Shown here: positions 21,868 to 59,647 of the stretch, in pieces | How positions within the stretch are numbered: position 1 is the stretch's first letter | How the letters are laid out: each line of letters starts with the position of its first letter | DNA from: Burkholderiales bacterium | Lineage (GTDB): Bacteria > Pseudomonadota > Gammaproteobacteria > Burkholderiales > Burkholderiaceae_C | Direction: 5' to 3' | NCBI GenBank assembly: GCA_038235025.1 | Contig: JBBSUJ010000005.1 | Coordinates: 7,417 to 71,416, forward strand | Length of the DNA stretch: 64,000 nucleotides | Notes under the pieces: generated by a model | What the model saw: only the letters and a program-made list of their open reading frames with translations | Told to the model about the DNA's origin: nothing | The model's database searches: none | Program-made: the position numbers and the translations under genes

Positions 21868-22415
21868 CAGGAGCTTTCTTTCTTCAAGGATGTCAGGAGC
21901 GCGTGGCCTGCGGGCCAGTCGCCCAAACCAGATGCCGCATTCAAATGCCCTACTGCACCAGCGTCGACAAAGCGCGCGCCCCATTGCCGCGCCAACGTGT
22001 TGGCCCGCGCAAAAGCGCAATAAGGGTCGTCGCGGCTACCCACCAATATGGTGGGGAACGGCAGCGGTTGGCTTGCAATCGGGAGCCAGCCAGGAATCTG
22101 CGCCGCCACCTCGGGCTGGGCGACATCGCCGGGAGCGACGAGCAGCGCCCCGCAGACTTTGCCGGTGTGCTGCGAATGCGCCGCCCACCACGCTGTGAGG
22201 ACGCAGCCCAAGCTGTGCGCGGCCAATACCAATGGGCTACTAGCGTCCGCCACTACCTCGTCCAGGCGGGCACTCCAGTCGCCGCGCAAGGGGCGCTGCC
22301 AATCGTGCTGCTCGACGCGCTGGTAACCGTGGGCGGCTTCCCAAAGCGTCTGCCAGTGATCATCGCCCGAGCTTTGCCAGCCTGGCAACGTGAGAACTTG
22401 CACCGCACTCACCAT
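21867..22415 (-). CDS. RBBP9/YdeN-family serine hydrolase
   Basis: 182 aa. It has LTLPGWQSSGDDHWQ at the N-terminus, a nucleophile motif AHSLGC, and SRDDPY followed by GHLN, as in YdeN-type alpha/beta hydrolases. Confidence 0.75.
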   Translation of the reverse strand: MVSAVQVLTLPGWQSSGDDHWQTLWEAAHGYQRVEQHDWQRPLRGDWSARLDEVVADASSPLVLAAHSLGCVLTAWWAAHSQHTGKVCGALLVAPGDVAQPEVAAQIPGWLPIASQPLPFPTILVGSRDDPYCAFARANTLARQWGARFVDAGAVGHLNAASGLGDWPAGHALLTSLKKESS

Positions 22416-22426
22416 ACTTCTTTATT

Positions 22427-22469
22427 CATAGCTATCAGCCCAATACCATCAAGCGCTAGAGGCCGATTT
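22427..22469 (+). repeat. REP-like element, copy 3, overlapping the parA stop
   Basis: Sequence tcatagctatcagcccaataccatcaagcgctagaggccgattt. The parA stop codon (22449-22451) and its last ~6 codons lie inside the element. Confidence 0.7.
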
Positions 22470-23282: not shown

Positions 23283-23369
23283 TAGTGCGCTCCGCCTGGC
23301 AGTGCCGTGCTGCGGCTGGATGGGACGACACTGATCATGGATTTCCTGCGGTTGGAACGAAGGGCGAGT

Positions 23370-24095
23370 TTACGTGACCGCACCGACCTCGCCACGCGAA
23401 TGTTCAGCGGCCATGCACCGCATCCACACAATGCAACGCTCGGCATCCAGGCACGGCACGGCCAACTGTTCCACGTGAAACACTTCCACTGCCTTTGGCA
23501 AGGCGCTGATCTCATCCTGCGGGTGCTTACCTTTCATCGCGAGCCACGCCCCGCCCGGCCCGAGCGCCGCGCCAGACCATGCGGTGAAGTCCGCCAACGA
23601 GGCAAAGGCACGGCTGCTGACGACGCCGTACGCATCTGCCAGCGATTCCACCCGGGCGTGGACACCGCGCAGGTTTTTAAGGCCGATACTGACCGCCACT
23701 TGCTGAACAAAAGCCGCCTTTTTGCTTACCGTGTCAACGCAGTCAACCATGAGCTCCGGAACGCAAATGGCAAACACAACACCGGGTAAGCCACCGCCAG
23801 AGCCGACATCGAGCAGGCGCATCGCCCCAGCGGCAGACTCGTTCGCTTGCGTCAAATGGCGCCGCAAGGGAGCAACCGCTGCCAAGCTATCTAAAAGGTG
23901 CAAGCTGAGCATGGCCTGGGGATCACGCACAGAGGTCAGGTTGTAGACCTTGTTCCATTTTTGAAGCAACCCGAGGAATGACGCCAACTGGTCCAACTGC
24001 ACTTCCGTAAGTTCTAGCGCCAATGCGCGAACGCCCTGCTCCAGCTGCAGCCTCAGCGCAGCCTCGCTCAACGACACCTTAGCTGGCACTTCCAT
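23370..24095 (-). CDS. rsmG: 16S rRNA (guanine527-N7)-methyltransferase RsmG
   Basis: 241 aa with LLQKWNKVYNLTSVRD and SAM motif LLDVGSGGGLPG. It overlaps the mnmG stop by 1 nt. Confidence 0.9.
   Translation of the reverse strand: MEVPAKVSLSEAALRLQLEQGVRALALELTEVQLDQLASFLGLLQKWNKVYNLTSVRDPQAMLSLHLLDSLAAVAPLRRHLTQANESAAGAMRLLDVGSGGGLPGVVFAICVPELMVDCVDTVSKKAAFVQQVAVSIGLKNLRGVHARVESLADAYGVVSSRAFASLADFTAWSGAALGPGGAWLAMKGKHPQDEISALPKAVEVFHVEQLAVPCLDAERCIVWMRCMAAEHSRGEVGAVT
23467..23482. promoter_or_regulatory. parS site (ParB binding), inside rsmG
   Basis: TGTTCCACGTGAAACA matches the parS consensus TGTTNCACGTGAAACA. Confidence 0.8.
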
Positions 24096-26071
24096 CAGGC
24101 CACCACACCTTCGGGTGAGCGGGAAAACTCTTTCAATCCATTCTTTTTGAGATGGACCAGCAAGAGCGACATGCTGGCAGGCGTGATACCCGGAATACGT
24201 GATGCCTGCCCCAAGGTCTCTGGCCGCTGGCGCTCCAGGGTCTGCCGCGCCTCGATGCTCAGCGCGGTCACTTTCAAGTAGTCAATATCGGCGGGCAGCT
24301 TCAACTGCTCGAAGTGCGCCGCCCTTTGCACGTCACTCTTCTGGCGCTCAATGTAGCCAGAGTAACTGGCAGCAATCTCTATCTGCTCGACCACGGACTC
24401 ACAAAGCTCGCCCAATGTTTCACGTGAAACATCTGCGCTGACATGACGTCCACCATCCATTTCCATCAGCGGCTGGTACTTCACGTCTGGCCGGCGCAGC
24501 AACTCAAACAGGTTGTACTCGTGCTCAATGGCTTTACCCAGAACGCGCTCAGACTCGCGAGCGGGCAAATTTTTGGGATTTACCCAGGTGTTTTTGAGGC
24601 GCGCCGTCTCGCGCTCCACCGCCTCGCGTTTGCGGCTGAAGGACGCCCAGCGCGCGTCGTCCACCAATCCCATGGTGCGACCTGCTTCTGTCAGGCGCAT
24701 ATCGGCGTTGTCTTCGCGCAGTTGCAGGCGGTATTCGGCCCGGCTGGTAAACATGCGGTAGGGCTCGGTCACGCCCTGTGTGACCAAGTCGTCCACCAGC
24801 ACGCCCAGGTAGGCTTCGTCGCGCCCTGGCAACCAAGGCGACTCACCCCGACACGCCAACGCGGCGTTGATGCCGGCGAACAGGCCTTGTGCAGCAGCTT
24901 CTTCATAGCCGGTGGTGCCGTTGATCTGCCCGGCGAAATACAGCCCGGTGATTTGCCGTGTTTCAAAGCTGTTTTTCAACGAGCGCGGGTCAAAGTAGTC
25001 GTATTCAATCGCGTAACCGGGACGCAGAATGTGTGCGTTCTCCAGCCCATCCATGCTGCGCACTAGGTCCAGCTGAATGTCGAACGGCAAGCTGGTGCTG
25101 ATGCCGTTGGGATAGAACTCGTGCGTGGTCAAACCCTCAGGCTCCAGAAAAATTTGGTGGCTGTCCTTATCCGCAAAGCGATTGACCTTGTCTTCCACGC
25201 TGGGGCAATAGCGCGGCCCCACGCCTTCAATTTTCCCGGTGAACATGGGACTGCGATCAAAACCGCTGCGAATGATGTCGTGTGTGCGCAGGTTGGTGTG
25301 CGTAATCCAGCACGGCATTTGTGCCGGGTGCATGGCCGCACCCCCATGCGCATGCGCCATGAAGCTGAAAACCGGAACCTTGCCCTCGTTCACGCCGCCC
25401 GGCATGCCGTCGCCGGGTTGCTCTTGGCACTTCGAGAAATCAATGCTGCGGCCGTCGATGCGCGGGGGTGTTCCGGTTTTGAGCCGGCCTTGTGGCAGCT
25501 GCAATTCTTTGAGCCGCGCCGACAGACTCGCCGCCGGCGGGTCACCCGCCCTGCCGGCCGCATAGTTGCTCAGCCCCACATGGATTTTCCCGTCCAGAAA
25601 AGTGCCTGCCGTCAGCACCACGGTGCGACTGCGAAACTGCACACCCACCTGGGTAACGGCGCCGACCACCCGGTCGCCCTCCACCATCAAGTCATCGACC
25701 GCTTGCTGGAAAAGCCACAAGTTGGGCTGATTCTCCAATGCGTGCCGAATGGCCGCCTTGTACAGAACGCGGTCAGCTTGCGCGCGCGTAGCGCGTACAG
25801 CAGGCCCTTTGCTGGAGTTCAGAATGCGAAACTGAATGCCAGACACATCAGTCGCCAATGCCATCGCGCCGCCCAGCGCGTCCACTTCTTTCACCAAGTG
25901 GCCCTTGCCGATGCCGCCGATAGACGGGTTGCAGCTCATCTGCCCCAGGGTTTCGATGTTGTGGGTCAGCAGCAAAGTGCGGCTTCCCATGCGGGCGGCG
26001 GCCAGCGCGGCCTCGGTGCCGGCATGGCCGCCACCGACGACGATGACATCAAATTCTTTGGGATACAACAT
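24095..26071 (-). CDS. mnmG: tRNA uridine-5-carboxymethylaminomethyl synthesis enzyme MnmG (GidA)
   Basis: ATG 26071 gives [22 protein letters not shown] (FAD dinucleotide fold). It resembles E. coli MnmG along its full length, as I recall that sequence. Confidence 0.93.
24416..24431. promoter_or_regulatory. parS site, inside mnmG
   Basis: TGTTTCACGTGAAACA is the perfect 16-bp palindromic parS. Confidence 0.85.
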
Positions 26072-26145
26072 GGGACACACTCCGAAACGACCAACGTCAA
26101 GGATTGACGGTATGCCTCGATTTTCCCACCAATGGCGCGCAAGGG

Positions 26146-28806: not shown

Positions 28807-31404
28807 CTAGACCGCCGCGCCTGCAGTTTGGCCCGCCGCCGCCGCCCGCCAAGCGCCGTTTCGGCAAACGCTCACCGCGCCCGTGGTCGGCTCGATCTGG
28901 AACAAGTGCAGCCAGCCGTTGTTCACCAAGTCACGCACCACCGCGTGGGCGGCCATCACGCCGTCCATGGCCGCCTGCGGCGCTTCGATGTAGACGCTAA
29001 GCCGCAGCGGGGTGTGGCGCAGGCGCTCGCCGTCGTGCAGCGATTGCAAAGGCAGGCCAATGCGCAGGTCGCCGCCGTTGCCCTCAAACACACCCAGATG
29101 CCCACCCACCACGTTGTGCAGCAGCTTGTTGCCACTGCCATAGCGCCGGTTGTCGACGGTAGAAGCGTGGTACTGCAGGTTGATCCAGTTGGTGACCACC
29201 ATGGGGGCCGTCATGATCAAGGTGAGAATTTTGGCCTCAGGGTCCAGCCGGTAGTCGTAGTCGTGCAGAAAGCTGCGGCCCGCAAGGTTCATGCGCTGGG
29301 TGCGCGCACGCGGCGCTACGATGAACGAGGCGTTGTCCACCAAACCCCACTCGGGCCGCACCTGCGACCAATCGTTGGCGCGCTCGCGCAGGGCCTGGTG
29401 CAGCGCGTCGGCATTGGGTAACAGGTCTGCTAGCCCCAGGCTGGCGGCGCGCTCGGCGCGGGCCGAAACGCCCGCGCTCGCAAGAGACGTTTTCAAGGCT
29501 TGCAGTGCGCCTGCCGTTGGCGCAGGCACGGCATCGGTATCAAACAGCACCACGTCGTCCGTGGTGGTGTTGTGCAGCCCGGGCAAAAAGTGCGTATCGG
29601 CCGGAATCGCAATCCCCAGCACGGCGACCTGTGCGCGCACCGCCGGGCGGTTGAGCAAATCGGCCAGCACGCGGGCATTTACTTCACCGCTTTGGCCGCC
29701 GCAGGCGCCGCAGTCCAGGCCCGCTGCGTGCGGGTTGTTGGCGCTTTGGCTGCCGTGCCCGGCAATCAGCACCAGCGGGGCGAAATCGCACACCAAACCC
29801 ATGGCGCTCAAGATTGCATGGGCCAGGGTGCCCGCCGCCTGCGCGTCGGCATCCGCCAAAGGCAGTGTAGGCCGCAGTGCAGCGATAGCGCCATTGGGCA
29901 GGCCCGTGTCTTCCCAGCGCTTGGCCGCTGAGCCTGACGCCAGGCTACTGCCCAGCAATTTACCGCCGTACAGCAGGCCCAGGCTCTCCACAAAGCTAAA
30001 GCCCGAGGAGGGTGCGCCTTTGAACGCCGCCCAGCGCTCGCGCCAGCGCAAGGTGTCTTGCCGCTTGCCCGCCAACACCTGCGCCAGTGGCTTTCCGTCA
30101 GGATGCGTTACAGTTTCTGTCACTCGCATAGCGGGTGCAAGCAAGCCCGGAAGCTGCGGGCGGCTGATGGCACCGCCCAGGGGCTGGTAGGCGATGGGCA
30201 AGCCAAAAAAGCCAGCAAAACCGCGCGTTTGAACGCTGGCGTCGGCCCACTCTAAGGCCCGCCGAAACACCTCAGAGCGCACATCAATACAGAACAAGGC
30301 CTGCGCGCTGACCCGTGTGCCAGGCCCCGCCCGCGCTGCCGGGCCGGCGTGTGTCAGCCCGGCAATCACCCGCTGTTGCTCGGCGATCTCTATGGCGTGT
30401 TGCAGCAGCCAGTCGGTGCGCTGTGCTTGGGCCAACGCTTGCGCCGCCGCGTCGGCTTGGGCCCAGTGCGCTGCCCAGTCCGCAGGCAGGCGGGCCTCAG
30501 GTGCATCGTGGTGCAGCAAGCATTCCCACGCCAAGCGCACTGCCAGCAGCTGCTCAATATGGTCATCGCTGCTGGCGGCCGTCGCTCCCAACCGGGCCTG
30601 CCAGCGCAAATAGGCACACCATGCCGACCAACCGCCCAAGGACAGCAGCACCGCGCTCAAATAAGCCCGCTGGCCCTGCGGCGAAATGTGCAGCCCGGCT
30701 AGCGATGCGGCAATGCTCTCTCGCGGCGATGCGGGCAACTCGGCCACGCGCGCAACCAAATCGGCCCGGCCTTTTTGCCAGGGTAGCCCGTGGTCCAGCA
30801 TCAGCTGATGACGCCAAGTGCCGTACAGCCCTGCAGCCGGGTCCATGCCCCATGCCGCTTGTTGCTCGTCGAAATACGCTGCGCAGTGCTGACTGACCTG
30901 GTGGGTGACCAGCTCGGTCCACGAGAGGCCTGGCCGCGCCGGAGCCACCGCGTCACGCAAATCAGTCACCAAAGGCAGGCGCGGCAGCTCAGGCTGCGCG
31001 GCACTGGCCGGCTCCAGCGCTTGCACCAGCTCGCGCACCAGGGCATTTACCTGCGCCGGGCACAGTACCGGCAAGGCATCGGCACCGGTTTGGGCTTCGC
31101 CCTCAGGGAGCACGGCACACTCTGCAGCTGCCACCAAATGTGCCTGCGTCAATCGGCCCGCCGCCCACTCGACCTGAAACCAGGTGCGGGGCAAGGTCAG
31201 GCGCGAGCCCGCCAACGTGCCCAGCGCGCCGGCTACCGCCTCAATCGGCTGATCGACCCAGCCCCAATAAGGGTTGACGGCAATGAACTGGTCCAGCGGC
31301 CAAGTGGGGGCGACTCGGGCGCAGGCCGCATCGATGTGCTGTGCGAGTGCTTCCGTCACTGCGGCAGCTGGCGAAGCCGATGAGGCCAATGGAATGGCGT
31401 TCAT
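28807..31404 (-). CDS. dabA: Inorganic carbon transporter subunit DabA (DUF2309/UPF0753)
   Basis: ATG 31404 overlaps the dabB stop (ATGA) and gives about 865 aa. Motifs LFCIDVRSE and GHGSQSANNPHAAGLDCGACGG are typical of the DabA zinc site. It is paired with a NuoL-like membrane subunit. Confidence 0.85.
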   Translation of the reverse strand: MNAIPLASSASPAAAVTEALAQHIDAACARVAPTWPLDQFIAVNPYWGWVDQPIEAVAGALGTLAGSRLTLPRTWFQVEWAAGRLTQAHLVAAAECAVLPEGEAQTGADALPVLCPAQVNALVRELVQALEPASAAQPELPRLPLVTDLRDAVAPARPGLSWTELVTHQVSQHCAAYFDEQQAAWGMDPAAGLYGTWRHQLMLDHGLPWQKGRADLVARVAELPASPRESIAASLAGLHISPQGQRAYLSAVLLSLGGWSAWCAYLRWQARLGATAASSDDHIEQLLAVRLAWECLLHHDAPEARLPADWAAHWAQADAAAQALAQAQRTDWLLQHAIEIAEQQRVIAGLTHAGPAARAGPGTRVSAQALFCIDVRSEVFRRALEWADASVQTRGFAGFFGLPIAYQPLGGAISRPQLPGLLAPAMRVTETVTHPDGKPLAQVLAGKRQDTLRWRERWAAFKGAPSSGFSFVESLGLLYGGKLLGSSLASGSAAKRWEDTGLPNGAIAALRPTLPLADADAQAAGTLAHAILSAMGLVCDFAPLVLIAGHGSQSANNPHAAGLDCGACGGQSGEVNARVLADLLNRPAVRAQVAVLGIAIPADTHFLPGLHNTTTDDVVLFDTDAVPAPTAGALQALKTSLASAGVSARAERAASLGLADLLPNADALHQALRERANDWSQVRPEWGLVDNASFIVAPRARTQRMNLAGRSFLHDYDYRLDPEAKILTLIMTAPMVVTNWINLQYHASTVDNRRYGSGNKLLHNVVGGHLGVFEGNGGDLRIGLPLQSLHDGERLRHTPLRLSVYIEAPQAAMDGVMAAHAVVRDLVNNGWLHLFQIEPTTGAVSVCRNGAWRAAAAGQTAGAAV

Positions 31405-33032
31405 TCCGAATCTCCAGAAACAAGGGTCAAGCCGGGAGCACCGTTGTGGGGCAGAGGCACCGCGTGCACCACGGGCGCAGCGGTGGGCTGGGCCGGAGCC
31501 CACAGACGAAACGCGATGCCGTTGAATTTTTCGTCCAGAAACAGACCGCCATAAAACCACGGGTACAGCCGCTGCGCCAGAGCCGAGCGCGGGGCAATGG
31601 TGATCAAGGATTGCAAGCAGAACAACCCCAGGAACGCCAGCGCCACGAATGTCCACAGCACCACCATCGGTGCCTGCTCAGGCACCTGCAACCAGGCCGT
31701 TGACAACACATGCAGGCCGAAGTAGCCGAAAGCCACTGCAAAAGCGCCAAGTGCCAACGCCGCAAGCCGCCAGCCACCAAGCAATAGTGCGCGCCCATTG
31801 ACCAGCGGCACCAGCGCCAAAGCCACAACTCCCGCCAGCACCCACAGAGCCGGCGAAGCCAGGGCACCAGGCACCCACGCCGTCCAAACCCCCCCAGCCA
31901 ACAGCACCATCACCGTGCCTGCGCCCATTCCCAGCGCGGTAGCACCCCAGCCGGTCGGCGCGCTGGCCGGTGCCATCTTGCCCACCATGCTGCGCTGCAC
32001 CACGCCGCCCGCCGACAGAAACGCATGCGCCTTGTAAAGCGAGTGCGCCAGCAAGTGCAGCAGCGCCATATCCCAAGCGCCCATACCGCACTGCATAAGC
32101 ATGAAGCCCATCTGCGCGCAGGTCGACCAGGCCAGCATGACCTTCACGCTGATGCGCGTGGTCATCACCAGCGCCGCCAGCACTGCCGTCGTCGTGCCCA
32201 CTACCACCAGCAACACTTGGGCCGATGGCACCTCTGATACCAGCGGCGCAAACCGAATCAGCACAAACCCACCCAAGTTCACGATGCCCGCATGCAGCAG
32301 CGCCGAGACGGGTGTGGGCGCCTCCATTACCTGAATCAACCAACCGTGAAACGGCAGCTGCGCGCAGTTGAGCAGCGCCGCCAGCGCGAGCAGCACGATG
32401 GCCGCATGGGCCGACACCGGCCATTCGGGCTGGGCTGCGGCCACTACAAACAGCTGGTCCATGTTCAGGGTGCCGAACGCAACGTACAGCAAGGCCACCA
32501 CTCCCGCCATGCACAGGTCCGCCAGCCGAGCCACGATGAACTTCTTGTGCGCAGCAACCACGGCCGCAGGCCTCTCGTTGAAAAACACCAGTAGGTGGTG
32601 CAGCGTCAGGCTGGTGGCCAGCCAGGCCAACGCCAGCACCAACACATGGTTGGTCGCCACGACAAGAAACACGGTTGCCAGAGTCGCCAACAGCCAGCGC
32701 ACGTAATGCCGCTCTTGCCGCTCGCCTTGCAAATAGCGCTGCGAATAGCGCACGATTACCCAGCCCACAAAAGCCACCAGCAGCATCACCACCGCGCCCA
32801 GCGCGTCGGCGCGCTGCCCGAAGCCCGCGCCCTGGTGGCCCATAGCCACCATCACCAGCCCGGCCAATGCCAGTGCCACACCCGCGGTGGCCGCACCGCG
32901 CGCCGTTTGCCAGGCCACAGCCGTGCTGCGCCGCACCAGCATGGCCGCCAGACCCATCACCAGGGCCGGGGACAACACCAGGGTTGCCTGCCACAGCGAC
33001 AAGTCGGCCGACGGGGAAATTACGAAGCTCAT
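31401..33032 (-). CDS. dabB: Inorganic carbon transporter subunit DabB (NuoL/MnhA-type proton-conducting membrane protein)
   Basis: The ORF extends to TTG 33044. I prefer the ATG at 33032, which has GGAG 6 nt upstream. It is about 543 aa and polytopic, with the Proton_antipo_M-like core (HLLAHSLYKAHAFLSAG). Confidence 0.85.
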   Translation of the reverse strand: MSFVISPSADLSLWQATLVLSPALVMGLAAMLVRRSTAVAWQTARGAATAGVALALAGLVMVAMGHQGAGFGQRADALGAVVMLLVAFVGWVIVRYSQRYLQGERQERHYVRWLLATLATVFLVVATNHVLVLALAWLATSLTLHHLLVFFNERPAAVVAAHKKFIVARLADLCMAGVVALLYVAFGTLNMDQLFVVAAAQPEWPVSAHAAIVLLALAALLNCAQLPFHGWLIQVMEAPTPVSALLHAGIVNLGGFVLIRFAPLVSEVPSAQVLLVVVGTTTAVLAALVMTTRISVKVMLAWSTCAQMGFMLMQCGMGAWDMALLHLLAHSLYKAHAFLSAGGVVQRSMVGKMAPASAPTGWGATALGMGAGTVMVLLAGGVWTAWVPGALASPALWVLAGVVALALVPLVNGRALLLGGWRLAALALGAFAVAFGYFGLHVLSTAWLQVPEQAPMVVLWTFVALAFLGLFCLQSLITIAPRSALAQRLYPWFYGGLFLDEKFNGIAFRLWAPAQPTAAPVVHAVPLPHNGAPGLTLVSGDSE

Positions 33033-33176
33033 CAACATCTCCAATACGAATGCCTCGACTGTGCCGCCAAGGCATCATTCTGTAAAATTCATTTTCCCGG
33101 ACGTTTCGTACGCTTAAACAGAACGCTTGCCGGCCATACAGCCACAAGGTCCAAGGCCTGCGTTTGAAAACACACC

Positions 33177-34851: not shown

Positions 34852-34881
34852 TCATCCGAGGGACATCGCAGCAGGCCATCC

Positions 34882-34920
34882 CATCATCTAAGATGATGAA
34901 AAATAGCATCATCTTAGATG
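34882..34920. promoter_or_regulatory. Putative vapBC operator: two palindromic copies
   Basis: catcatctAagatgatg (34882-34898) has perfect 8-bp arms. A second copy, catcatctTagatg (34907-34920), lies 12 nt upstream of the vapB ATG. Confidence 0.6.
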
Positions 34921-37072: not shown

Positions 37073-37115
37073 AATAGCTACCCACGCTTACTCCATAAGC
37101 GCTAGAGCCCGATTT
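37073..37115 (+). repeat. REP-like element, copy 5
   Basis: Sequence aatagctacccacgcttactccataagcgctagagcccgattt, lying between divergent gene starts. Confidence 0.8.
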
Positions 37116-37302
37116 GGCTAAATTTTTGGCCAAATCTCTCGGCCTCCCTGGAAATGCGGCGCGTTCCTGCACGCACACCGCCCATCTGCCGATAGCCTTG
37201 GTTGATTGCGATGCACGCGCGCCCCACGCTTGCCCCTTTTACGGCGCTGCCTGCTTTGACAGCTCTCGCACCTCATACACCTCTCCCTTCAAGAAAGACC
37301 CC

Positions 37303-51311: not shown

Positions 51312-51419
51312 AAAACCTGGTGTGCCCTTTGCATCGATATTGGGTGTACCGGCTGCGCCAGTGCCGCGGATCGACAGAGCGGATGAAGTTTTGGGAGGAG
51401 CGTATTGGACCATGCCACC

Positions 51420-51450
51420 ACCGTACACCCTGCCACGATGGCAAGGTCAA
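51420..51450 (-). promoter_or_regulatory. CueR (MerR-type) operator/promoter of copA
   Basis: The minus strand reads TTGACC-(19 nt)-TACGGT. The dyad ACCTTGCCAtcgTGGCAGGGT lies inside the 19-bp spacer, as in the E. coli PcopA architecture. Confidence 0.7.
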
Positions 51451-51552
51451 GCGCGAGGGGGTGGGCAGCGCAAGTTGCGGCAAATGAAACCGTCGCCGCC
51501 TACAGCCTTATTCACAAACACCCCACCGCATCAAAAACGGTGTTTTGTTTGA

Positions 51553-51793
51553 CTATTCTTCTATTTCTTTCTATATCAATAGTAGTAGTAGTAAGGGAGG
51601 CCTTTTTCTGGGGATAAGTCGGTTTTACCCAACGATGACAAACACTTGCACGGCAGACAAGTCTGTGCGCGGTAGGCGCTTGCTGCTGCACGCCAAACAG
51701 GGACAACTTCCGTAGCATCTATATTTCTGTGGATAACTTGCTTATTATTAGAAAACCATCCACAGGTTTGTCCACAAAAAAAAGCACCGAGCT
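51553..51793 (+). repeat. AT-rich DnaA-box-bearing module A, homologous and inverted relative to 59134-59372
   Basis: It contains direct repeats (tcttcta/tctttcta), (TAG)4, and the boxes TGGGGATAA (51609-51617), TGTGGATAA (51728-51736, a perfect TTATCCACA) and TTGTCCACA (51768-51776). It aligns by hand to the reverse complement of module B. Confidence 0.8.
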
Positions 51794-51888
51794 CGCTGCT
51801 GCCGTGGCGATGGGCGAACTGCACGCCGGCTGTTCGATCAACCTACTGCCAACGTACTCAGTCGCAGTACCCGGTAGAAAATATAAGT

Positions 51889-51933
51889 AAAATCGGCTTA
51901 TAGAGCTTATGCAGCAAGCGTTGGAAGCTATAA
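51889..51933 (-). repeat. REP-like element, copy 6 (minus orientation)
   Basis: The reverse complement reads atagcttccaacgcttgctgcataagctctataagccgattt. Confidence 0.65.
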
Positions 51934-51958
51934 AAACAGTAGTGTCCGGACATGGCGC

Positions 51959-51989
51959 TTGCCCCTGTCACGGCGTCAAGGTGCAAGCT
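51959..51989 (+). promoter_or_regulatory. Second CueR-type operator/promoter, upstream of copZ-cueR
   Basis: TTGCCC-(19 nt)-CAAGCT, with the dyad CCCCTGTCAcggCGTCAAGGT related to the copA operator arms. Confidence 0.6.
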
Positions 51990-52045
51990 CAGCGCTTCGC
52001 TTCCTCTTCTTTGTTTCCCCTTTCTTAACCACCAAGAAGTTCCCT

Positions 52046-52249
52046 ATGAGCACCGCCCAACAATTCACCGTTACCGGTATGACCTGCGGCCACTGCGAGC
52101 GCGCTGTCACCCAGGCCGTGCAAACGCTGGACCCAGCCGCCCAAGTGCGCATCGACCGCGCCGCCAACCACGTTGAGATCGACAGCAGCCAACCGCGCGA
52201 AGCACTGGCCGCCGCCATCACCGAAGAGGGCTACCAGGTCGCCGCATGA
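52046..52249 (+). CDS. copZ: Copper chaperone CopZ-like (HMA domain)
   Basis: Internal ATG at 52046 gives 67 aa with MSTAQQFTVTGMTCGHCERAV. Its stop overlaps the cueR start (ATGA). Confidence 0.85.
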   Translation: MSTAQQFTVTGMTCGHCERAVTQAVQTLDPAAQVRIDRAANHVEIDSSQPREALAAAITEEGYQVAA

Positions 52250-52734
52250 GCACGGCCACTTCCGCTGTCGCCACGTCCACTCCAGGCGCTGACACGGCGA
52301 CCACGGCGCGCGTCCCCATCGGCACAGCCGCCCAGCGCGCGGGCGTGTCGGCGCGCATGGTGCGGCACTACGAATCGCTGGGCCTGCTCGCGCCTTTGGA
52401 GCGCACCGAATCGGGCTACCGGCAATATTCGCAAGCGGATGTGCACGCCCTGCGCTTTATCCGCCGCTCGCGGGACTTGGGCTTTTCGATGGTCGAGATC
52501 GCCACCCTGCTCAGCCTGTGGCAAGACAAACAGCGCGCCAGCGCCAGCGTGAAGCAAATCGCGCAGACGCATATCGACGACTTGGCGCAGCGCATTGCCG
52601 TTATGCAGGCCATGCAGCGCAGCTTGCAAGATTTGGTCAACTGCTGCGCGGGCAATGCGCGGCCGGATTGTCCGATATTGGACGACTTGGCAGCCGAAGG
52701 CACAAGCGCAGCGCCCGTTACCGCAAAGCGGTAA
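52246..52734 (+). CDS. cueR: Cu(I)-responsive MerR-family regulator CueR
   Basis: 162 aa with a MerR HTH (IGTAAQRAGVSARMVRHYESLGLL) and a C-terminal Cx7C metal site (CAGNARPDCP). Confidence 0.88.
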   Translation: MSTATSAVATSTPGADTATTARVPIGTAAQRAGVSARMVRHYESLGLLAPLERTESGYRQYSQADVHALRFIRRSRDLGFSMVEIATLLSLWQDKQRASASVKQIAQTHIDDLAQRIAVMQAMQRSLQDLVNCCAGNARPDCPILDDLAAEGTSAAPVTAKR

Positions 52735-52747
52735 AAATTATCAAAAA

Positions 52748-52793
52748 AATAGCTGCTCATGCTTACATATCAAGCGCTAGCTAGAGTTAAGCC
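52748..52793 (+). repeat. REP-like element, copy 7
   Basis: Sequence aatagctgctcatgcttacatatcaagcgctagctagagttaagcc, lying between cueR and mscS. Confidence 0.7.
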
Positions 52794-52830
52794 TCACCTT
52801 ACTAAACGCGCTTCCTCTAGGACCCTCCCC

Positions 52831-53730
52831 ATGTTCGCCCCCCTCGCTTTACTCCAAACCAAGTTGCTCGCCGTTACGCAAGAGCTCATTCTGCTCACGC
52901 CGAACCTTATCGCAGGGGCGCTGCTGGTGGCGGCGGTGTGGTGGGGCGGCAAGGTGGTGGGCAAAGTCATTGCACGCATTAGCGCGGCGCGAGGGCGGCC
53001 CGATTTAGGGGCGCTGCTGGGCGTACTGGCACGCGTGGTCCTAATGGGGATTGCGCTGCTGGTGGCCTCCGCCCTGGTATTTCCGTCGGTAAATCCTGGT
53101 GATATTTTTGCAGCCCTGGGTTTTATTTCGGTGGCCGTAGGGCTGGCCTTCAAAGACATCTTGCAGAACATCTTGGCGGGCCTGCTGTTGGTGATACGCA
53201 GGCCGTACCTGCGCGGCGACCAGATCATCGTCAAGGGTTACGAGGGTACGGTCGAGCAGGTGGATAGCCGCGCTACCTTGCTCAAAACCTACGATGGGCG
53301 GCGCGTGTTGGTACCCAACAGCGACCTCTACACCACGCCCGTCATTGTGAACACCGCGTTTGCGCTGCACCGCAATGAGCTGCAAGTGCGCGTGCAACTC
53401 GCCACTGATCTGCCAGCCGCTATCACGCTTTTTCAGAAAACGGTGGCGAGCGTCGATGGCGTGGTGCATGAACCGGCGGTAGAAGTGATCCCTTGGGACA
53501 TTGAACACGCTCAAGTAGATTTGAAAATACGCTGGTGGGCTGACGCGCGTCGGCTGCCGCAGGTACAAACCAAAGGCCGTGTCATCTTGGCAGTGGCCGC
53601 TGCCGCCAAGGCGCAGGGAATGGTGTTGCCTTACCCCACCTCGGTGGTGGTGCTGGAAGACGAGGGCGGTGCGGGCGATAACGTCAATGCTGCGCGCCGT
53701 GAAACAAAGCGGCAGCCTCCGTTTGCTTAA
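52831..53730 (+). CDS. Mechanosensitive ion channel family protein (MscS-like)
   Basis: Internal ATG at 52831. It has three N-terminal TM segments followed by the MscS beta-domain pattern (RRPYLRGDQIIVKGYEGTVEQVDSRATLLKTYDGRRVLVPNS). Confidence 0.85.
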   Translation: MFAPLALLQTKLLAVTQELILLTPNLIAGALLVAAVWWGGKVVGKVIARISAARGRPDLGALLGVLARVVLMGIALLVASALVFPSVNPGDIFAALGFISVAVGLAFKDILQNILAGLLLVIRRPYLRGDQIIVKGYEGTVEQVDSRATLLKTYDGRRVLVPNSDLYTTPVIVNTAFALHRNELQVRVQLATDLPAAITLFQKTVASVDGVVHEPAVEVIPWDIEHAQVDLKIRWWADARRLPQVQTKGRVILAVAAAAKAQGMVLPYPTSVVVLEDEGGAGDNVNAARRETKRQPPFA

Positions 53731-53783
53731 CCGCATCACTCACACGCCATTCAACTTAATTCCGCCACGAGCAACACGCTGCC

Positions 53784-54221
53784 ATGCAAACCACCTCCCA
53801 CACTTGGTTCTTCTGGGCTTCGCTGTCGGCCGTCTTTGCTGCGCTCACCGCCATCTTCGCCAAAGTGGGCATTCAGGGCGTGGATTCGGATTTGGCCACG
53901 CTGGTACGCACGGTCATCATCGTCTTCGTAATGGCGGCTTTTGTTGCTTATGCCGGCAAATGGAGCAATCCGCTGGCGCTGCCAGGCAAGACTTTGCTCT
54001 TTCTGACGCTCTCCGCTCTGGCAACGGGCGCATCGTGGGTTTGCTACTTTCGCGCCCTGCAACTGGGTGAGGCGTCCAAGGTGGCACCGGTCGACAAGTT
54101 CAGCCTCGTATTGGTAGCGGTGTTCGCGTTTGTCTTTCTTGGCGAACGGCCGTCGGGCGGCAGCTGGTTGGGGATTGCGCTGGTAGCTTTGGGCGTGCTG
54201 GTGCTGGCGTGGAGGCGCTAA
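53784..54221 (+). CDS. Small EamA-domain (DMT superfamily) membrane protein
   Basis: 145 aa with about 5 hydrophobic segments and a single EamA-like domain (ASWVCYFRALQLGEASKVAPVDK). Confidence 0.75.
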   Translation: MQTTSHTWFFWASLSAVFAALTAIFAKVGIQGVDSDLATLVRTVIIVFVMAAFVAYAGKWSNPLALPGKTLLFLTLSALATGASWVCYFRALQLGEASKVAPVDKFSLVLVAVFAFVFLGERPSGGSWLGIALVALGVLVLAWRR

Positions 54222-54264
54222 GCGCCAGCTTGGCCCGCACAATGCCACCTTGAGCCCTATAATT

Positions 54265-54395
54265 TTCGCTTCCCCTGGGGAGTAGCCGGCTTTCACCTGT
54301 GAAAGCGCCTGCGTCAACATTCTCGGCGTGCCCCGCGCGCCGTGGCGCAGGCAACCGGAGCGGTGCGAAGAGACCTTATTCTTTGCAGCGCTTGG
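54265..54395 (+). promoter_or_regulatory. yybP-ykoY (Mn2+) riboswitch upstream of mntP
   Basis: A TATAAT box at 54258-54263 is followed by the conserved elements GGGGAGTAGCC (54277-54287), a hairpin CTTTCACctGTGAAAG, GTCAACAT, a stem GCCTGCG...CGCAGGC, and AAGAGACC (54369-54376). It sits upstream of a known riboswitch-controlled gene family. Confidence 0.8.
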
Positions 54396-54486
54396 ATTGG
54401 CGAGACCATGGGCGCGTCCGCCGGGCATGTGCCGGGCTATGCGGACGCGCCTCATGCACCTCGCCCGGCCGTGGATTCCGCTTCTG

Positions 54487-55059
54487 ATGAACCCCCTCAC
54501 GATGGCCCTGCTGGCACTGGCCATGTCTACCGACGCGTTTGCTGCCGCCGTGGGCAAAGGCATGTCGCTCAGGCACCCGCACTGGCGCGAAGCGCTGCGC
54601 ACTGGCGCTATTTTTGGTGTGATCGAAGGCTTCACCCCGGTGTTGGGCTGGGCGCTGGGCGTGGTGGCGGCTGACTATGTCAAAGCTTGGGACCACTGGA
54701 TTGCGTTTTTACTGCTCTGCGGCCTGGGGCTGCACATGGCCATTGCAAGCCTGCGCTCGCCCGCCTCGAACCCAAATGACAAGCCAAACCGGCATGGGTT
54801 TTGGCTCCTCGCAGCCACAGGCTTTGCCACCAGCGTGGACGCCATGGTGGTGGGCGTAGGGCTGGCATTTATTGACGCGCCGATTGTCCCAGTCGCGCTC
54901 GCAATCGGCTTTACAACGTTTGTCGCGGTCACGCTGGGCGTGATGCTGGGACGCGTGTTGGGCACGGCGGCCGGGCGGCGGGCAGAACTGGTGGGTGGTC
55001 TGGTGCTGATCGGAATCGGTGCGGTGATTCTTTTCGAGCACCTCTCAGGTGCCGCCTGA
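54487..55059 (+). CDS. mntP: Manganese efflux pump MntP
   Basis: Internal ATG at 54487 gives 190 aa. MNPLTMALLALAMSTDAFAAAVGKG and the second-half repeat ATSVDAMVVGVG are MntP/DUF204 hallmarks. Confidence 0.88.
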   Translation: MNPLTMALLALAMSTDAFAAAVGKGMSLRHPHWREALRTGAIFGVIEGFTPVLGWALGVVAADYVKAWDHWIAFLLLCGLGLHMAIASLRSPASNPNDKPNRHGFWLLAATGFATSVDAMVVGVGLAFIDAPIVPVALAIGFTTFVAVTLGVMLGRVLGTAAGRRAELVGGLVLIGIGAVILFEHLSGAA

Positions 55060-55066
55060 GAGGTGC
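55038..55066 (+). terminator. Stem-loop spanning the mntP stop, possibly a bidirectional terminator
   Basis: GCACCTCTCAGGtgccgCCTGAGAGGTGC has a perfect 12-bp stem and a 5-nt loop and is followed by TTTC. It lies at a convergent gene junction. Confidence 0.55.
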
Positions 55067-55091
55067 TTTCGCGCGGCCCGAGCCCTAGCGT

Positions 55092-56552
55092 TTACAGCGA
55101 CAAGATGGAGACCGTTTTGGTCACGAGATAAGACTCCAGCGCCTCGGGTCCGCCTTCCGACCCGTAGCCGGAATCTTTCACGCCACCAAACGGCATTTCG
55201 GCCGAGGCCGATGGCGGCTGGTTGATCCACAGCATGCCGACTTCGATGCCACTGGCGATCTTGTGCGCGGTGGAAATCGACTGCGTAAACGCGTAGCTGG
55301 CCAAGCCGTACGGCAAGCGGTTGGCTTCCTTTAGCGCCTCGTCGATCGTGTCAAAACCACGAATGGCTGCCACCGGACCGAAAGGTTCGTTGTTGAACAC
55401 GCTGGCGTCCAGCGACACGTCGCCCAGCACCGTAGGCTGGAAGAAGTTGCCCACTTCGCCAATGCGCTTACCGCCCGTCAAAACGTTGGCGCCTGTCTTC
55501 TCGGCGTCTTTCATGAGCTCGTTCAGCGCTTTGATGCGCCGGTCGTTGGCCAGCGGGCCCATCTGCGTGTCAGCATTCAAACCATCGCCCACTTTGAGTT
55601 GTTCGGCCGCTTTCACCATGCCGTCGGTGAACGCTTTGCGCACGCTGTTGTGCACCAAAAAACGTGTGGGCGAGATGCACACCTGACCCGCGTTGCGGAA
55701 CTTGGAGCCGGCCATAGCCTTCACCGCTGCGGCAATGTCGGCATCCTCCGCAATGATCACCGGCGCATGGCCGCCCAGTTCCATGGTGGAGCGCTTCATG
55801 TGCTTGCCGGCCATGGCGGCCAGCTGCTTGCCGACTTCGGTAGAGCCGGTGAACGTGATCTTGCGAATGATGGGGTGGGCAATCAGATACGACGAGATTT
55901 CTGCCGGGTCGCCGTACACCAAACCCACGGTGCCGGGCGGCACACCGGCATCCACAAACGCCTTGAGCAGCGCGGCCGGCGATGCCGGCGTTTCTTCCGG
56001 TGCTTTGACCAAGAACGAACAGCCGGTGGCCAACGCTGCGCCCAGCTTGCGCACGATCTGGTTCACCGGGAAATTCCAAGGGGTGAACGCTGCCACGGGG
56101 CCCACGGGCTCTTTCATCACCATCTGCTGCACATCCAGGCGGCGCGGCGGCACGATGCGGCCATACACGCGCATTCCTTCGTCGGCAAACCATTCAATGA
56201 TGTCAGCACCGGCCAGCACCTCGCCGCGGGATTCGGCCAGCGGCTTGCCTTGCTCCTGTGTCATCAGCGATGCAATGTCATCGGCCCGCTCGCGCACCAA
56301 CGCCGCCGCCTTGCGCATGGTCTTGGCGCGCTCATGCGCAGGCGTGGCGCGCCAGGCTTCAAAACCTTTCTGCGCGGCGGCCAATGCCAAGTCAAGGTCG
56401 ACCTTTTCGGCGTGCGCCACTTGGGCAATCACTTTGCCGGTGGCCGGATTCACCACGTCGATGCTTTTGCCACCCTTGGCGTCTTGCCAGGTACTGCCAA
56501 TAAGCAATTGGGTGTCGGGGTAGGTGGGCGTGGCAGTGGCTTTGTCGGTCAT
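55092..56552 (-). CDS. NAD(P)-dependent aldehyde dehydrogenase (succinate-semialdehyde dehydrogenase-like)
   Basis: 486 aa with a catalytic Glu (MELGGHAP) and Cys ([12 protein letters not shown]) and the ALDH pattern FTGSTEVGK. Confidence 0.88.
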
Positions 56553-56760
56553 GAAATTCCTGCGGATCGAGTGCGATGGATGCTAGGTTTGTGCGCGCTG
56601 GCAGGGGCTCAAGAGATAACTTGAGCCGCCGCGGGACACAAAGGCAGCGAGGGATAGGTCATTGTCCGGCACCACCTTGCGGAGCGATGCCGGACAAAGT
56701 GCCGTAGGGCTTCGCACAGTCGCATAGTGGACAGCGCAGGCCCTCGCTAAGGCCGCGTGA

Positions 56761-57816
56761 TCAGAACGGCGCTGTGCCCGGATCCATGTCTATAGGCGCG
56801 GTAGCCGGACCCGTGACGGTGCCCTTGCTGGAGCTCGAAGATCTGCTGTCCACCACTGCTACTGGGGCAGCGGACACACCCGGCGCGCTCGGCGCGGCTG
56901 CTAGGTTAGACATTGCGGCGGCGGCTCCCGGCTGCGCTTCACCGCCCAGTGCCTCGATTACGTCAGGCAGCATGCGCGACAACTCGCCCGTGGCAATGGC
57001 CACGTCGGTATCAAACCCGCCATCGTCGGCCGCCTTGTCCTCAAACACGGTGTCCAGAAACGTGATTTTCTTCAGTTGCAGGCCTTCGGTCAGCATGAAG
57101 GACACGCGCTCGTCCCAGGTCAGTGCCAGCTTGGTGGGCAGCTTGCCCGCCGCAATATGCGCCTGCACTTCTTCGATATCGAGGGGATGGCGGGCGTAGC
57201 GCACCACGGCCTTGGCTTCATCTGCGGCTTTCAATTCGCATTCGCGGTCCACGCTAAACCCTTGCGGTGGCTCTTGGCTGGACAGCCAATGCGCCATGGC
57301 CGCCTGCGGACTGGTGTGGGTATGCACCAGCGCCAGCGCAAAACCCGGTAACGCTTCGGTCAGCACGGTGACAACTTCATCGGCCCGTGCTTGGCTGCCG
57401 GTGTCCAGCACCAGGGTGCGGGCGGCCTGGTCGATCCACGCCCACATGGAGCCCTGCTTGGTGAACGCCATAGGCAACAAATCCAGCAGGGCTTCGTCTT
57501 TTAGCTCCTTGCTTTCCTTCTTGCCCGGCTTGCGGCCGGTTTCTTTTTCGATGCGCTCGGCTTTCTCCTTAACGCGCTTGGCCACGACCGAGCCCGGCAC
57601 CACTTTGGCTTCGGCCATAAAGCGCAGCACCCACTGCCCGCCCACCGATTCGGCCAGCAGGCCGTGCTCATCACCGCGCGGCGGCACCCAGCCAGTTGAG
57701 CGTTCTTGCGTCGCTCCGCATTCTTGAAACGGGGTACGGGCCAGCGCTTCTTCGAGCTGGGTCAAATCGCATTGCCACTCTGGGGCGATGCGGTAAACGA
57801 TCATGTTTTTGAACAA
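56761..57816 (-). CDS. rdgC: Recombination-associated protein RdgC with a ~60-aa low-complexity C-terminal extension
   Basis: The TTG at 57816 lies 7 nt after GAGGA and gives LFKNMIVYRI (compare E. coli MLWFKNLMVYRL). An alternative ATG is at 57804. The body parallels RdgC (ELKAADEAKAVVRYARH..., KLALTWDERVSFMLTEGLQLKKI). Confidence 0.85.
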   Translation of the reverse strand: MFKNMIVYRIAPEWQCDLTQLEEALARTPFQECGATQERSTGWVPPRGDEHGLLAESVGGQWVLRFMAEAKVVPGSVVAKRVKEKAERIEKETGRKPGKKESKELKDEALLDLLPMAFTKQGSMWAWIDQAARTLVLDTGSQARADEVVTVLTEALPGFALALVHTHTSPQAAMAHWLSSQEPPQGFSVDRECELKAADEAKAVVRYARHPLDIEEVQAHIAAGKLPTKLALTWDERVSFMLTEGLQLKKITFLDTVFEDKAADDGGFDTDVAIATGELSRMLPDVIEALGGEAQPGAAAAMSNLAAAPSAPGVSAAPVAVVDSRSSSSSKGTVTGPATAPIDMDPGTAPF

Positions 57817-57905
57817 CGAAAAATCCTCACAACACAACACAACACAACGACCCGCCATTGTCGCGGGTCGCGCTTTTAGGTAACCGGCTGAACAAATATG
57901 AATTT

Positions 57906-57948
57906 AATAGCGCTGCACCCATATTCAACAAGTGCTAGAGCCTTATTT
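57906..57948 (+). repeat. REP-like element, copy 8
   Basis: Sequence aatagcgctgcacccatattcaacaagtgctagagccttattt, in the divergent rdgC / spy-like promoter region. Confidence 0.65.
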
Positions 57949-58128
57949 CATCATTATTTTTGAGCAGGTCAACACCATGGCTACCTACCGGCCAGTCATT
58001 CAACTTTACACAGCATCACATGGCACGCACGGTGCGCTTACAGGCCGGGAACACACTGAACCCCAACGTGGACGAAACGCCCGCGCCGCCCGGCCATTGC
58101 CTGAGGCCACTCTTCCAAAGGATTGCTC

Positions 58129-58776
58129 ATGACTTTCGCCGTCACCCAAACCACCGCCGCTCCTTACCGTCTTTCGCTGCACCTTGCTGCCTTGGCCGCC
58201 TGCGCCGCATTCAGCTTTCCGGTTCTGGCGCAACGCTCTGCACCCCTGCCAGCGGACGCAGCCGCTAGCACACCAAGCGCCGCCACCCCGCATGTCGACC
58301 GCGCCGTGCACCGCCAGCAGTGGCAAGAAAAACGTGCAGCACGGCGCGCCGAACACACCGCGCAACTCAAACAAAGCCTGGCGCTCACGCCGGCTCAGGA
58401 AAGTGCCTGGACCGACTTCACCACTGCACTGCAAATGCGCAGCGACTTTGCCAAGTTGGGCCGCGTCAATATGCAAGACCTGACCACGCCTGAGCGCATC
58501 GACCGCATGCGCGCAATGCGCGCACAGCGCAATGCCGCCATGGACCAACGCGCCGACGCCACCAAAGCGTTCTACGCCCAACTGCAGCCGGAGCAGCAAA
58601 AAACCTTTGACCAATCCAACATCCGCATGATGCGCACGGGTCAAATGGGCAAGAGGGGTCACCACCAAGGTCACCAAGGCCATCACGAACAAATGGGTCA
58701 AAAAAAATCACGAGGGTCACCAAAGCCAGATGGGATACCACGGCTCCATGAGCCTGCACCCACCGCGACCTATTGA
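58129..58776 (+). CDS. Spy/CpxP-family periplasmic chaperone / heavy-metal stress protein (ZraP-like His-rich tail)
   Basis: The ATG at 58129 follows AAGGA. It has a signal peptide ending FPVLAQ, LTxxQ-type motifs (LALTPAQESAW, LQPEQQKTF) and a His-rich segment (KRGHHQGHQGHHEQ). The last ~25 codons are uncertain. Confidence 0.7.
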   Translation: MTFAVTQTTAAPYRLSLHLAALAACAAFSFPVLAQRSAPLPADAAASTPSAATPHVDRAVHRQQWQEKRAARRAEHTAQLKQSLALTPAQESAWTDFTTALQMRSDFAKLGRVNMQDLTTPERIDRMRAMRAQRNAAMDQRADATKAFYAQLQPEQQKTFDQSNIRMMRTGQMGKRGHHQGHQGHHEQMGQKKSRGSPKPDGIPRLHEPAPTATY

Positions 58777-59133
58777 TTGACTGGCCAATCGTTGACACGC
58801 CTGCAAAGGCCGTTCCAGCAACAATCAAAGAGGCGCTTAAGCGCATACCGGGCGCGGGTCTCGAGTTAACCCTCTGGCGCGTCTTCAGTGGGTTTGCACA
58901 CCCATCACAAGAATGTGCTGGCCACTCGCTGGTGATACGAACGGCAAGCGCGTCTTTTGTGTGCATCACATCTCACTGTGGAAAAGTTTTCGGAACGCAG
59001 CGGCAACACCAGCGTCCGCGGCGGGTAAAGCACTTGACCAACCCGACTGCGCCTCAACCCCCGGGCACAACCTTGCGCAGTTAACACCATGTACCGCATC
59101 TGTGAGTCCTTGTTACGTCCGCCGGGACCGCGT

Positions 59134-59372
59134 AGCTCGGCTGTGCATAACCCTGTGTAAAAAATCACTGGAAAATACAAGTTACCCACAGAAAAAAGCG
59201 ATGTAAGGAAGTTATTCAAGTTTTGGGACAGCCATGACAGTGGCTGGTACACATACTTTGAAGCCTTGCAAGTGCCTGATTTTTCTCATGAAATCAGGGT
59301 TACCCACAGAACCACGGCTTGTCTACTACTACCACTATGTAATTAGAAAGACTTAGAAAGATAGCAAAGCCG
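59134..59372 (-). repeat. AT-rich DnaA-box-bearing module B, inverted homologue of 51553-51793
   Basis: Boxes TGTGCATAA (59142-59150, i.e. TTATGCACA) and TTACCCACA (59182-59190 and 59300-59308). It also has (CTA)n, ctactactaccactat, and direct repeats ttagaaag x2. The boxes are positionally equivalent to those of module A. Confidence 0.8.
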
Positions 59373-59647
59373 GCCCGCGCTTTGGTGATGGAAGAGCCGT
59401 TGTGAGCGCAAGAAATGCCCTCAGGACATCAAAAGGGCTTTTTATTGAGATAGAAATGTTGGAGCACTGCCAAGGTGTCTCTATTTGTTAGCTGTCTTCA
59501 CGACGCGCAAGGTCTTTACCAGCGCTTCAAGCAGCAATCGTCAACGGGCTAAGTCGCCGGGTGCCTCAACCAAGTTGTGCAGAGAACCACCGATATCGCA
59601 GCGATTCTTCGGAAGCCAAGGAAGCCGTTGTTTGCCGGCTCCGCCGT

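Follow-up and report, generated by a model that had tools for sequence, protein, structure and literature searches.

The DNA analyzed here is a 64,000-nucleotide stretch from a Burkholderiales bacterium (assembly GCA_038235025.1, contig JBBSUJ010000005.1, positions 7,417 to 71,416 of the forward strand), hereafter called the window. It contains two short, noncoding modules, modL and modR, which lie 7.7 kb apart (measured from R1-type DnaA box to R1-type DnaA box) in opposite orientations, with their AT-rich ends facing outward. The spacer between the divergent copA and copZ promoters holds modL, and an 870-bp convergent spacer, located between a GGDEF/EAL gene and ltxxq-rdgC, holds modR. An earlier note on this DNA, written from the sequence alone, had described the pair as very long, degenerate terminal inverted repeats around a block of metal and stress genes. 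The two modules are very probably origin-type DnaA modules at the chromosomal origin, that is, twin oriC unwinding units that are split and inverted in this genome. On the best reading, they would be paralogous copies of the chromosomal oriC unwinding unit of the Comamonadaceae. Their parts, as read from the sequence, are as follows.

51539 to 51794, plus strand: modL, a complete origin-type module in the divergent copA/copZ promoter spacer
51553 to 51579, plus strand: AT-rich tract of modL, the proposed DNA unwinding element
51580 to 51594, plus strand: DnaA-trio array of modL, TAG TAG TAG TAG TAA
51609 to 51617, plus strand: R1-type DnaA box of modL, TGGGGATAA, 14 bp past the trios
51639 to 51648, plus strand: CAAACACTTG of modL, with a core resembling a binding site of integration host factor (IHF; CAR-N4-TTG), 21 bp past R1
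51728 to 51736, plus strand: second DnaA box of modL, TGTGGATAA, a perfect consensus match, at +110 from R1
51768 to 51776, plus strand: third DnaA box of modL, TTGTCCACA, in the opposite orientation, at +150
59123 to 59375, minus strand: modR, a complete origin-type module in the 870-bp convergent spacer between the GGDEF/EAL gene and ltxxq-rdgC
59338 to 59372, minus strand: AT-rich tract of modR, the proposed DNA unwinding element
59323 to 59337, minus strand: DnaA-trio array of modR, TAG TGG TAG TAG TAG, with three consecutive TAG triplets beside the spacer
59300 to 59308, minus strand: R1-type DnaA box of modR, TGTGGGTAA, 14 bp past the trios
59269 to 59278, minus strand: CAGGCACTTG of modR, with an IHF-like core, 21 bp past R1
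59182 to 59190, minus strand: second DnaA box of modR, again TGTGGGTAA, at +109
59142 to 59150, minus strand: third DnaA box of modR, TTATGCACA, in the opposite orientation, at +149

The resemblance between the modules, first reported from a hand alignment, was confirmed by formal alignment with shuffle controls. Comparison of the sequence from 51553 with the reverse complement from 59364 reproduced the ungapped counts claimed previously (46/66 and then 17/32). When 51553-51793 was aligned globally, with gaps, to the reverse complement of 59134-59372, 160 of 276 columns were identical (z = 11.4), and the local alignment of modL with modR yielded z = 12.2. None of 500 dinucleotide-preserving shuffles matched the global or the local score; an absence of significant similarity in a formal alignment, which the earlier note had named as grounds for giving up its claim, was not observed. 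The similarity ends at the module limits (z = -0.9 for the inner flanks and 1.3 for the outer flanks). No target-site duplication was found, and the outer flanks share no direct k-mer of 5 or longer.

The individual motifs reported previously were recovered in whole or in part. A third conserved box and a TAG run were found in both modules, as described. The 13-mer TTCTGTGGRTAAC, said to occur twice per module, is exact at 51725, 59181, and 59299, but its copy at 51606 has 2 mismatches. The direct-repeat pair tctttcta is exact twice in modR, but modL has one exact copy and one variant. The end ccgagct, which had been taken as shared, falls in columns where the information content of the module family is ~0, and the agreement is probably due to chance. 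Within the 13-mer lies TGTGGATAA, which is the consensus DnaA box TTATCCACA read on the opposite strand. The motifs themselves had been seen, but the 13-mer had not been recognized as a DnaA box, nor the TAG run as a DnaA-trio array.

Both modules have the same order of elements: an AT-rich tract, five TAG-type triplets, a 14-bp spacer, the sequence TGKGGRTAA, a box at +109/110, and an opposite-strand box at +149/150. The basal unwinding system (BUS) of bacterial oriC, reportedly described by Richardson (2016/2019), consists of a DnaA box, a spacer, DnaA-trios, and an AT-rich tract. Pelliciari (2021) defines the BUS by the box, the spacer, and the trios: the DnaA box may have up to 2 mismatches, the spacer may be no longer than 16 bp, and the NAN triplets, whose consensus is 3′-GAT-5′, must number three or more (PMC8287927). 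The boxes TGGGGATAA in modL and TGTGGGTAA in modR each have 1 mismatch to TTATCCACA and lie in the reverse R1 orientation, the spacer is 14 bp in both modules, and each module has at least three consecutive NAN triplets, i.e., triplets of the 5′-TAG-3′ type. The modules thus have the same elements as the BUS in the same order and with the same strand relation, 5′-(TAG)n, spacer, TGTGGAYAA-3′. They differ from it in that the triplets are unusually regular, with five near-perfect TAG repeats, and in that the full unit, with two more boxes at fixed positions (+110/+150), is present twice per chromosome here.

Beyond the trios, each module has an easily melted tract, and the two tracts rank first and second for lowest duplex stability in the whole window (nearest-neighbor ΔG of 40-bp segments). 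The least stable segment, 51554-51594, lies in modL (ΔG of -41.6 versus a mean of -63.5; z = 5.2), where A+T makes up 75% of the 40 bp upstream of the trios; the second, 59323-59363, lies in modR (z = 4.5). A DnaA-box array, a further criterion of chromosomal oriC, is present in each module as two more boxes at fixed offsets. In total, TTATCCACA has 14 matches with ≤1 mismatch in the window, versus 4.7 expected, and 8 of the 14 are located in or beside the modules. Weigel (2025) gives the order of an origin as DNA unwinding element (DUE), DnaA-trio, and reverse R1 box (5′-TGTGNAWAA), and also asks that the gene upstream of the unwinding element be transcribed away from it (bioRxiv 10.1101/2025.08.05.668638). 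Both modules agree with this order. As for the upstream gene, copA reads away from the unwinding element of modL, and the GGDEF/EAL gene reads towards modR, with a terminator-like hairpin between them.

To place the modules in a wider context, synteny was anchored on RdgC, which is encoded inside the block, and 80 loci were fetched from Comamonadaceae genomes. An nhmmer profile, started from the two window copies and rebuilt from 119 copies, matches modL at 51539-51776 on the plus strand (E = 2.8e-54, 182 bits) and modR at 59123-59375 on the minus strand (E = 3.6e-40, 136 bits); modL thus outscores modR, and the window has exactly these two matches. The module is present in ~60 of the RdgC-anchored loci, from Giesbergeria, Simplicispira, Acidovorax, Paracidovorax, Comamonas, Melaminivora, and Alicycliphilus. 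The copy number per locus is nearly always two, mostly as a direct tandem with copies 0.3 to 0.7 kb apart, and the ~1.3 Mb of related DNA covered by the profile search contained no other module, whether beside rdgC paralogs or anywhere else. Two DnaA-box-like 9-mers lie beyond the profile limits: TTATTCACA at 51508-51516, 37 bp outside the AT-rich end of modL, and TTTTCCACA at 58977-58985, ~140 bp inside the inner end of modR.

Information content across the family peaks in the TAG run, in the three DnaA boxes, and in three short motifs that lie between. The trio consensus is (TAG)5, and the most conserved columns of all are those of the DnaA-trios. Inner spacing is also conserved. Of 122 copies, 115 have a 14-bp spacer, and across the family the second box is found +109 to +111 from R1. 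In addition, 116 of 220 copies have the CAR-N4-TTG motif, at which the DNA-bending protein IHF may bind, precisely at +21. The family consensus is matched by modL at 56 and by modR at 53 of the 57 constrained columns. Compared with each other, the two copies agree at 52/57 constrained versus 60/186 unconstrained columns, the latter being close to background. Because of this difference, the conserved islands of the pairwise alignment can be equated with family-constrained sites, namely DnaA boxes and trios. The earlier note had ascribed the islands to protein-binding motifs and their patchiness to function, not neutral decay, and both points stood. The two copies in the window appear from these columns to be old paralogs, not products of a recent duplication.

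The usual layout in relatives is ggdef, module, module, ltxxq, rdgC, with the copies direct and close together. Other arrangements occur. The pair is flipped as one unit in L012 (8203-8955) and L015 (8153-8991); the copies flank rdgC as direct repeats 2.8 to 10 kb apart in L023, L031, L033, L034, L044, L067, L071, L075, and L076; and both copies lie downstream of rdgC in L073 (11024-11836). A metagenome scan with the trio/spacer/box core pattern added 101 loci; 46 of these have two copies in direct orientation, and an inverted pair was seen in none. A separate metagenome scan with a 30-mer specific to modL gave no match. Among ~105 other two-copy loci, no mutually inverted pair was found. Over 84 direct pairs, the median R1-to-R1 distance is 491 bp (range, 314 to 4418 bp).

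Across the family, conservation of the trios, the spacer, the R1 box, and the AT-rich tract is equal in the two classes of copies (1.52 trio mismatches on average in each; a 14-bp spacer in 57/62 versus 57/58). The ggdef-side module of L002 (7573-7815), L004 (7715-7956), and L005 (7717-7952) lacks a regular TAG run, with TAGATAGTAGATAG in L005, and the ggdef-side copy in the closest relatives scores 120 bits versus ~155. One module only is present within 8 to 12 kb in three related metagenome-assembled genomes (MAGs; L006, L022, and L065), and some long metagenomic contigs also have a single module. Taken together, the low-scoring ggdef-side copy and the single-copy MAGs suggest that one copy is decaying in the clade of closest relatives.

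In the relatives, GC skew switches sign at the locus. The rdgC-side flank has a positive skew in 52/52 loci (mean, +0.057), and the opposite flank has a negative skew in 41/52 (mean, -0.023), reaching -0.05 to -0.08 in Comamonas. When the cumulative skew was computed over loci of ~21 kb, the minimum fell inside the pair in 20/48 loci and ≤500 bp away in 29/48, and it was on the rdgC side in 0/48. In three complete chromosomes, the pair is ~18, 41, and 213 kb from position 1. The window also contains a set of origin-proximal markers, 26 to 31 kb from modL.

20953 to 26080, minus strand: mnmG(gidA)-rsmG(gidB)-parA-parB (Pfam GIDA, GidB, AAA_31/ParA-type, and ParB domains)

A skew switch at some distance from dnaA is known from Cupriavidus metallidurans CH34, where ~90 kb separate it from dnaA and a 213-nt stretch next to it contains three perfect DnaA boxes (PMC2864759).

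The genes between the modules were annotated with Pfam and Rfam.

51794 to 59122: enclosed block with copZ, cueR, mscS, a half-size eamA, a manganese riboswitch with mntP, an aldehyde dehydrogenase gene, rdgC, and ltxxq
~52046 to 52249, plus strand: copZ
52246 to 52734, plus strand: cueR
53784 to 54221, plus strand: EamA gene, a half-size, single-domain form of 145 amino acids
54272 to 54446, plus strand: manganese (yybP-ykoY) riboswitch upstream of mntP (Rfam, 59.5 bits versus a gathering score of 45)
58123 to 58776, plus strand: LTXXQ/Spy-like gene

A longer antisense open reading frame (ORF) over the EamA gene, 53751-54635, does not represent a gene. Among the relatives that have the full region, L005 (Simplicispira hankyongi) is the closest, and its order is ggdef, module, module, ltxxq, rdgC, mntP, eamA, cueR, copZ, copA, clcB. 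Flipped to match, the window reads ggdef, modR, ltxxq, rdgC, aldh, mntP, eamA, mscS, cueR, copZ, modL (inverted), copA, clcB. The block is collinear with that of L005 and is therefore neither mobile nor inverted; an inversion of the block was ruled out because both gene order and strands equal those of L005. The enclosed genes appear, from this comparison, to be ordinary chromosomal genes in their ancestral order, not the cargo of a mobile element. What differs from L005 is that one module is gone from beside ggdef and an inverted one is present in the copA/copZ spacer. The modules of the relatives sit at the same place as modR, which thus seems to occupy the ancestral position.

In its spacer, modL is flanked by MerR/CueR-type promoter palindromes at 51413-51456 (copA) and 51956-51990 (copZ-cueR), which are conserved with L005, and both promoters would drive transcription away from the module. 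Alignment to the copA/copZ spacer of L005 recovered these two palindromes only, and no insertion junction of modL was found at the nucleotide level. Exact matches to the RdgC, aldehyde dehydrogenase, and CueR proteins came only from two short contigs (L001 and L082) of a separate Logan assembly of run SRR24807090. Around both modules these contigs agree with the window in their proteins and protein order, but their sequence differs from it at some positions.

Several observations weigh against reading the modules as twin origin units. The R1 boxes deviate from TTWTNCACA at one canonical position (TTATCCcCA and TTAcCCACA), and the second triplet of modR is TGG. In the window itself, the skew to the right of modR is -0.014 (over 4.6 kb with a single gene) and not positive; the sign change therefore rests on the relatives and not on this genome. 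Among the relatives, the local skew minimum is 4.5 to 8.2 kb off, on the ggdef side, in 17/48 loci, and dnaA was not seen among the window ORFs scanned. The best identity of the window modules to relatives' copies at unconstrained columns is 0.42, versus a background of 0.34 ± 0.08; these columns are saturated and assign neither modL nor modR to the relatives' first or second copy. Finally, if the relocation was recent, conservation would be uninformative about the activity of modL in its new place.

Alternative explanations differ widely in how well they fit these data. Only one of the modules might initiate, with the other serving as a DnaA-binding regulatory site (for titration or recycling, like datA or DARS) or persisting as a decaying spare, an explanation that is possible if somewhat doubtful. 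The broken trio phase and low score of the ggdef-side copy in the closest relatives, the single-copy MAGs and metagenomic contigs, and the downgrading of one origin proposed for the Halomonadaceae (bioRxiv 10.1101/2025.08.05.668638) favor it. A titration site, however, would need no trios, spacer, or AT-rich tract, all of which the two copy classes keep equally well, and the window copies retain 53 to 56 of the 57 constrained columns. The terminal-inverted-repeat reading of the earlier note, under which the modules would bound a composite mobile element with the metal/stress block as its cargo, is hardly credible. It accounts for the inverted orientation with AT-rich ends outward and for the accessory-type genes enclosed (copZ, cueR, and mntP), but the block is collinear with L005, whose modules both lie at the ggdef end, and the modules of relatives are direct tandem pairs. 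Neither a target-site duplication nor flank similarity was found, the ORFs scanned in and beside the block lack a transposase-like domain, and the conserved islands are DnaA boxes and trios.

The remaining alternatives concern other kinds of noncoding DNA. A dispersed family of miniature inverted-repeat transposable elements (MITEs) or repetitive extragenic palindromic (REP)-like repeats, which the note had itself raised in the form of a MITE family, would also be short and noncoding with an AT-rich end, and a separate REP-like family does occur in the window. That explanation has almost nothing left to recommend it given exactly 2 copies in 64 kb and ~2 per related locus, none beside rdgC paralogs or elsewhere in the ~1.3 Mb of related sequence, and a genomic position fixed across at least 7 genera. 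Small-RNA genes, or DnaA-regulated promoter or leader regions of adjacent genes, are very unlikely. Although modL lies within a promoter spacer and has one weak sigma-70-like match, modR lies between convergent genes and has no promoter-like site, and the flanking genes vary with the arrangement. No Rfam family matches the modules (the region gave the manganese riboswitch and chance matches to miRNA models only), and RNAalifold found no consensus structure for 35 copies on either strand. DnaA boxes and an AT-rich tract are often combined in plasmid origins, and the modules could in principle be the oriV of an integrated plasmid or integrative element. However, no similar plasmid was found in PLSDB, the locus has no rep gene and no iterons, and it keeps its synteny throughout the family and lies at the chromosomal skew switch, so that a plasmid origin is scarcely conceivable here.

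From the layout of the modules and published work on DnaA-trio origins, we infer how a chromosomal oriC unwinding unit of this kind would work. DnaA would bind the R1-type box, as double-stranded DNA, and the two boxes downstream of it, possibly with a DNA-bending protein at CAR-N4-TTG. From there, a DnaA oligomer would bridge the 14-bp spacer, whose length is fixed, and reach the five TAG-type triplets of one strand, and the adjoining AT-rich tract would melt, letting the helicase load. The family norm would be two such units side by side near ltxxq-rdgC, at the GC-skew switch. In this genome, modR would have stayed in place, and modL would have come to lie 7.7 kb away, flipped, between the divergent copA and copZ promoters, with the intervening genes still in ancestral order. 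As a speculation, copper-induced transcription from the flanking CueR-type promoters might help to open modL.

Two complete origins on one chromosome have a precedent in oriC1 and oriC2 of Pseudomonas aeruginosa, reportedly described by Yee and Smith (1990) and by Jiang (2006). According to Weigel (2025), P. aeruginosa has the only chromosome known to carry two functional origins; dual origins are predicted for the Pseudomonadaceae and the Halomonadaceae, with one origin proposed to be downgraded in the latter (bioRxiv 10.1101/2025.08.05.668638). Origins of the Pseudomonas type occupy two fixed and different intergenic regions, beside rpmH/dnaA and mnmG, and were judged not to be duplicates of each other (bioRxiv 10.1101/2025.08.05.668638). 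The Comamonadaceae units resemble them in being two complete DUE/trio/R1 units, kilobases apart, that are inherited by a family and of which one copy is sometimes degraded or lost. They differ in sharing one architecture, as paralogs, and in their usual tandem placement, 0.3 to 0.7 kb apart beside ltxxq-rdgC. Their placement also varies, from tandem to flanking rdgC to inverted and 7.7 kb apart, as in the window. By this analogy, the twin unit would work like a dual origin yet would not be a member of the Pseudomonas-type arrangement.

Bipartite oriC regions, such as those of B. subtilis (incAB/incC) and H. pylori (oriC1/oriC2 around dnaA), have a single unwinding element and unlike halves. 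The twin unit shares with them two DnaA-box clusters with coding DNA between. However, the modules have an AT-rich tract and a trio array each, and dnaA is absent from the DNA between them; because each half has its own unwinding tract, the twin unit is not a bipartite origin. The locus of C. metallidurans CH34 is similar in combining a skew switch tens of kilobases from dnaA with a ~200-nt cluster of three DnaA boxes, but a single cluster was described there and no trio array or duplication was reported (PMC2864759).

The window has other features beyond the modules. A REP-like intergenic repeat (AATAGCTRC...GCTTA...AAGCGCTAGAG, followed by a T-rich tail) occurs in at least 6 copies, at 2552-2585, 22427-22481, 37073-37127, and 52748-52781, with weaker copies at 51892-51925 and 57930-57960; one of the weak copies separates modL from the copZ promoter. 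On the plus strand, 3952-10048 encodes an ATP-dependent DNA ligase, an Lhr-type helicase, and a metallophosphoesterase in a row, which looks like a Lig-Lhr-phosphoesterase repair cluster. On the minus strand, 28807-33147 encodes DabA, a probable subunit of an inorganic-carbon transporter, followed by a 489-amino-acid ORF without a Pfam match, which may be its DabB partner. An AT-rich intergenic palindrome or repeat at 34879-34919 (CATCATCTAAGATGATG ... CATCATCTTAGAT) is among the least stable duplexes of the window and may be an operator.

Bacterial chromosomes are taught as single-origin replicons, and our literature searches returned no description of a Comamonadaceae oriC or of a twin origin. 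Judging from the sequence, it is quite possible, though far from assured, that both modules are active. A tentative and rather unlikely extension of this reading is that the Comamonadaceae have two complete, paralogous origins per chromosome, that both are active, and that either could work without the other. If it is true, a family with two full units would be a second, independent case after P. aeruginosa, one in which the units combine rigid inner spacing with free placement relative to each other. The small size of the unit (~250 bp) makes the twin-origin reading easy to test, and the regular (TAG)5 array would be a clean substrate for studies of DnaA binding to single-stranded DNA. The module profile would also allow origins to be marked precisely in Comamonadaceae genomes and MAGs, which is of use for assembly starts, replication-rate estimates, and skew analyses. 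More generally, large inverted repeats near an origin need not mean mobile elements. Under the twin-origin reading, this genome would be a natural experiment in which the pair is uncoupled (7.7 kb apart and head-to-head, with the unwinding ends outward) while both units remain intact.

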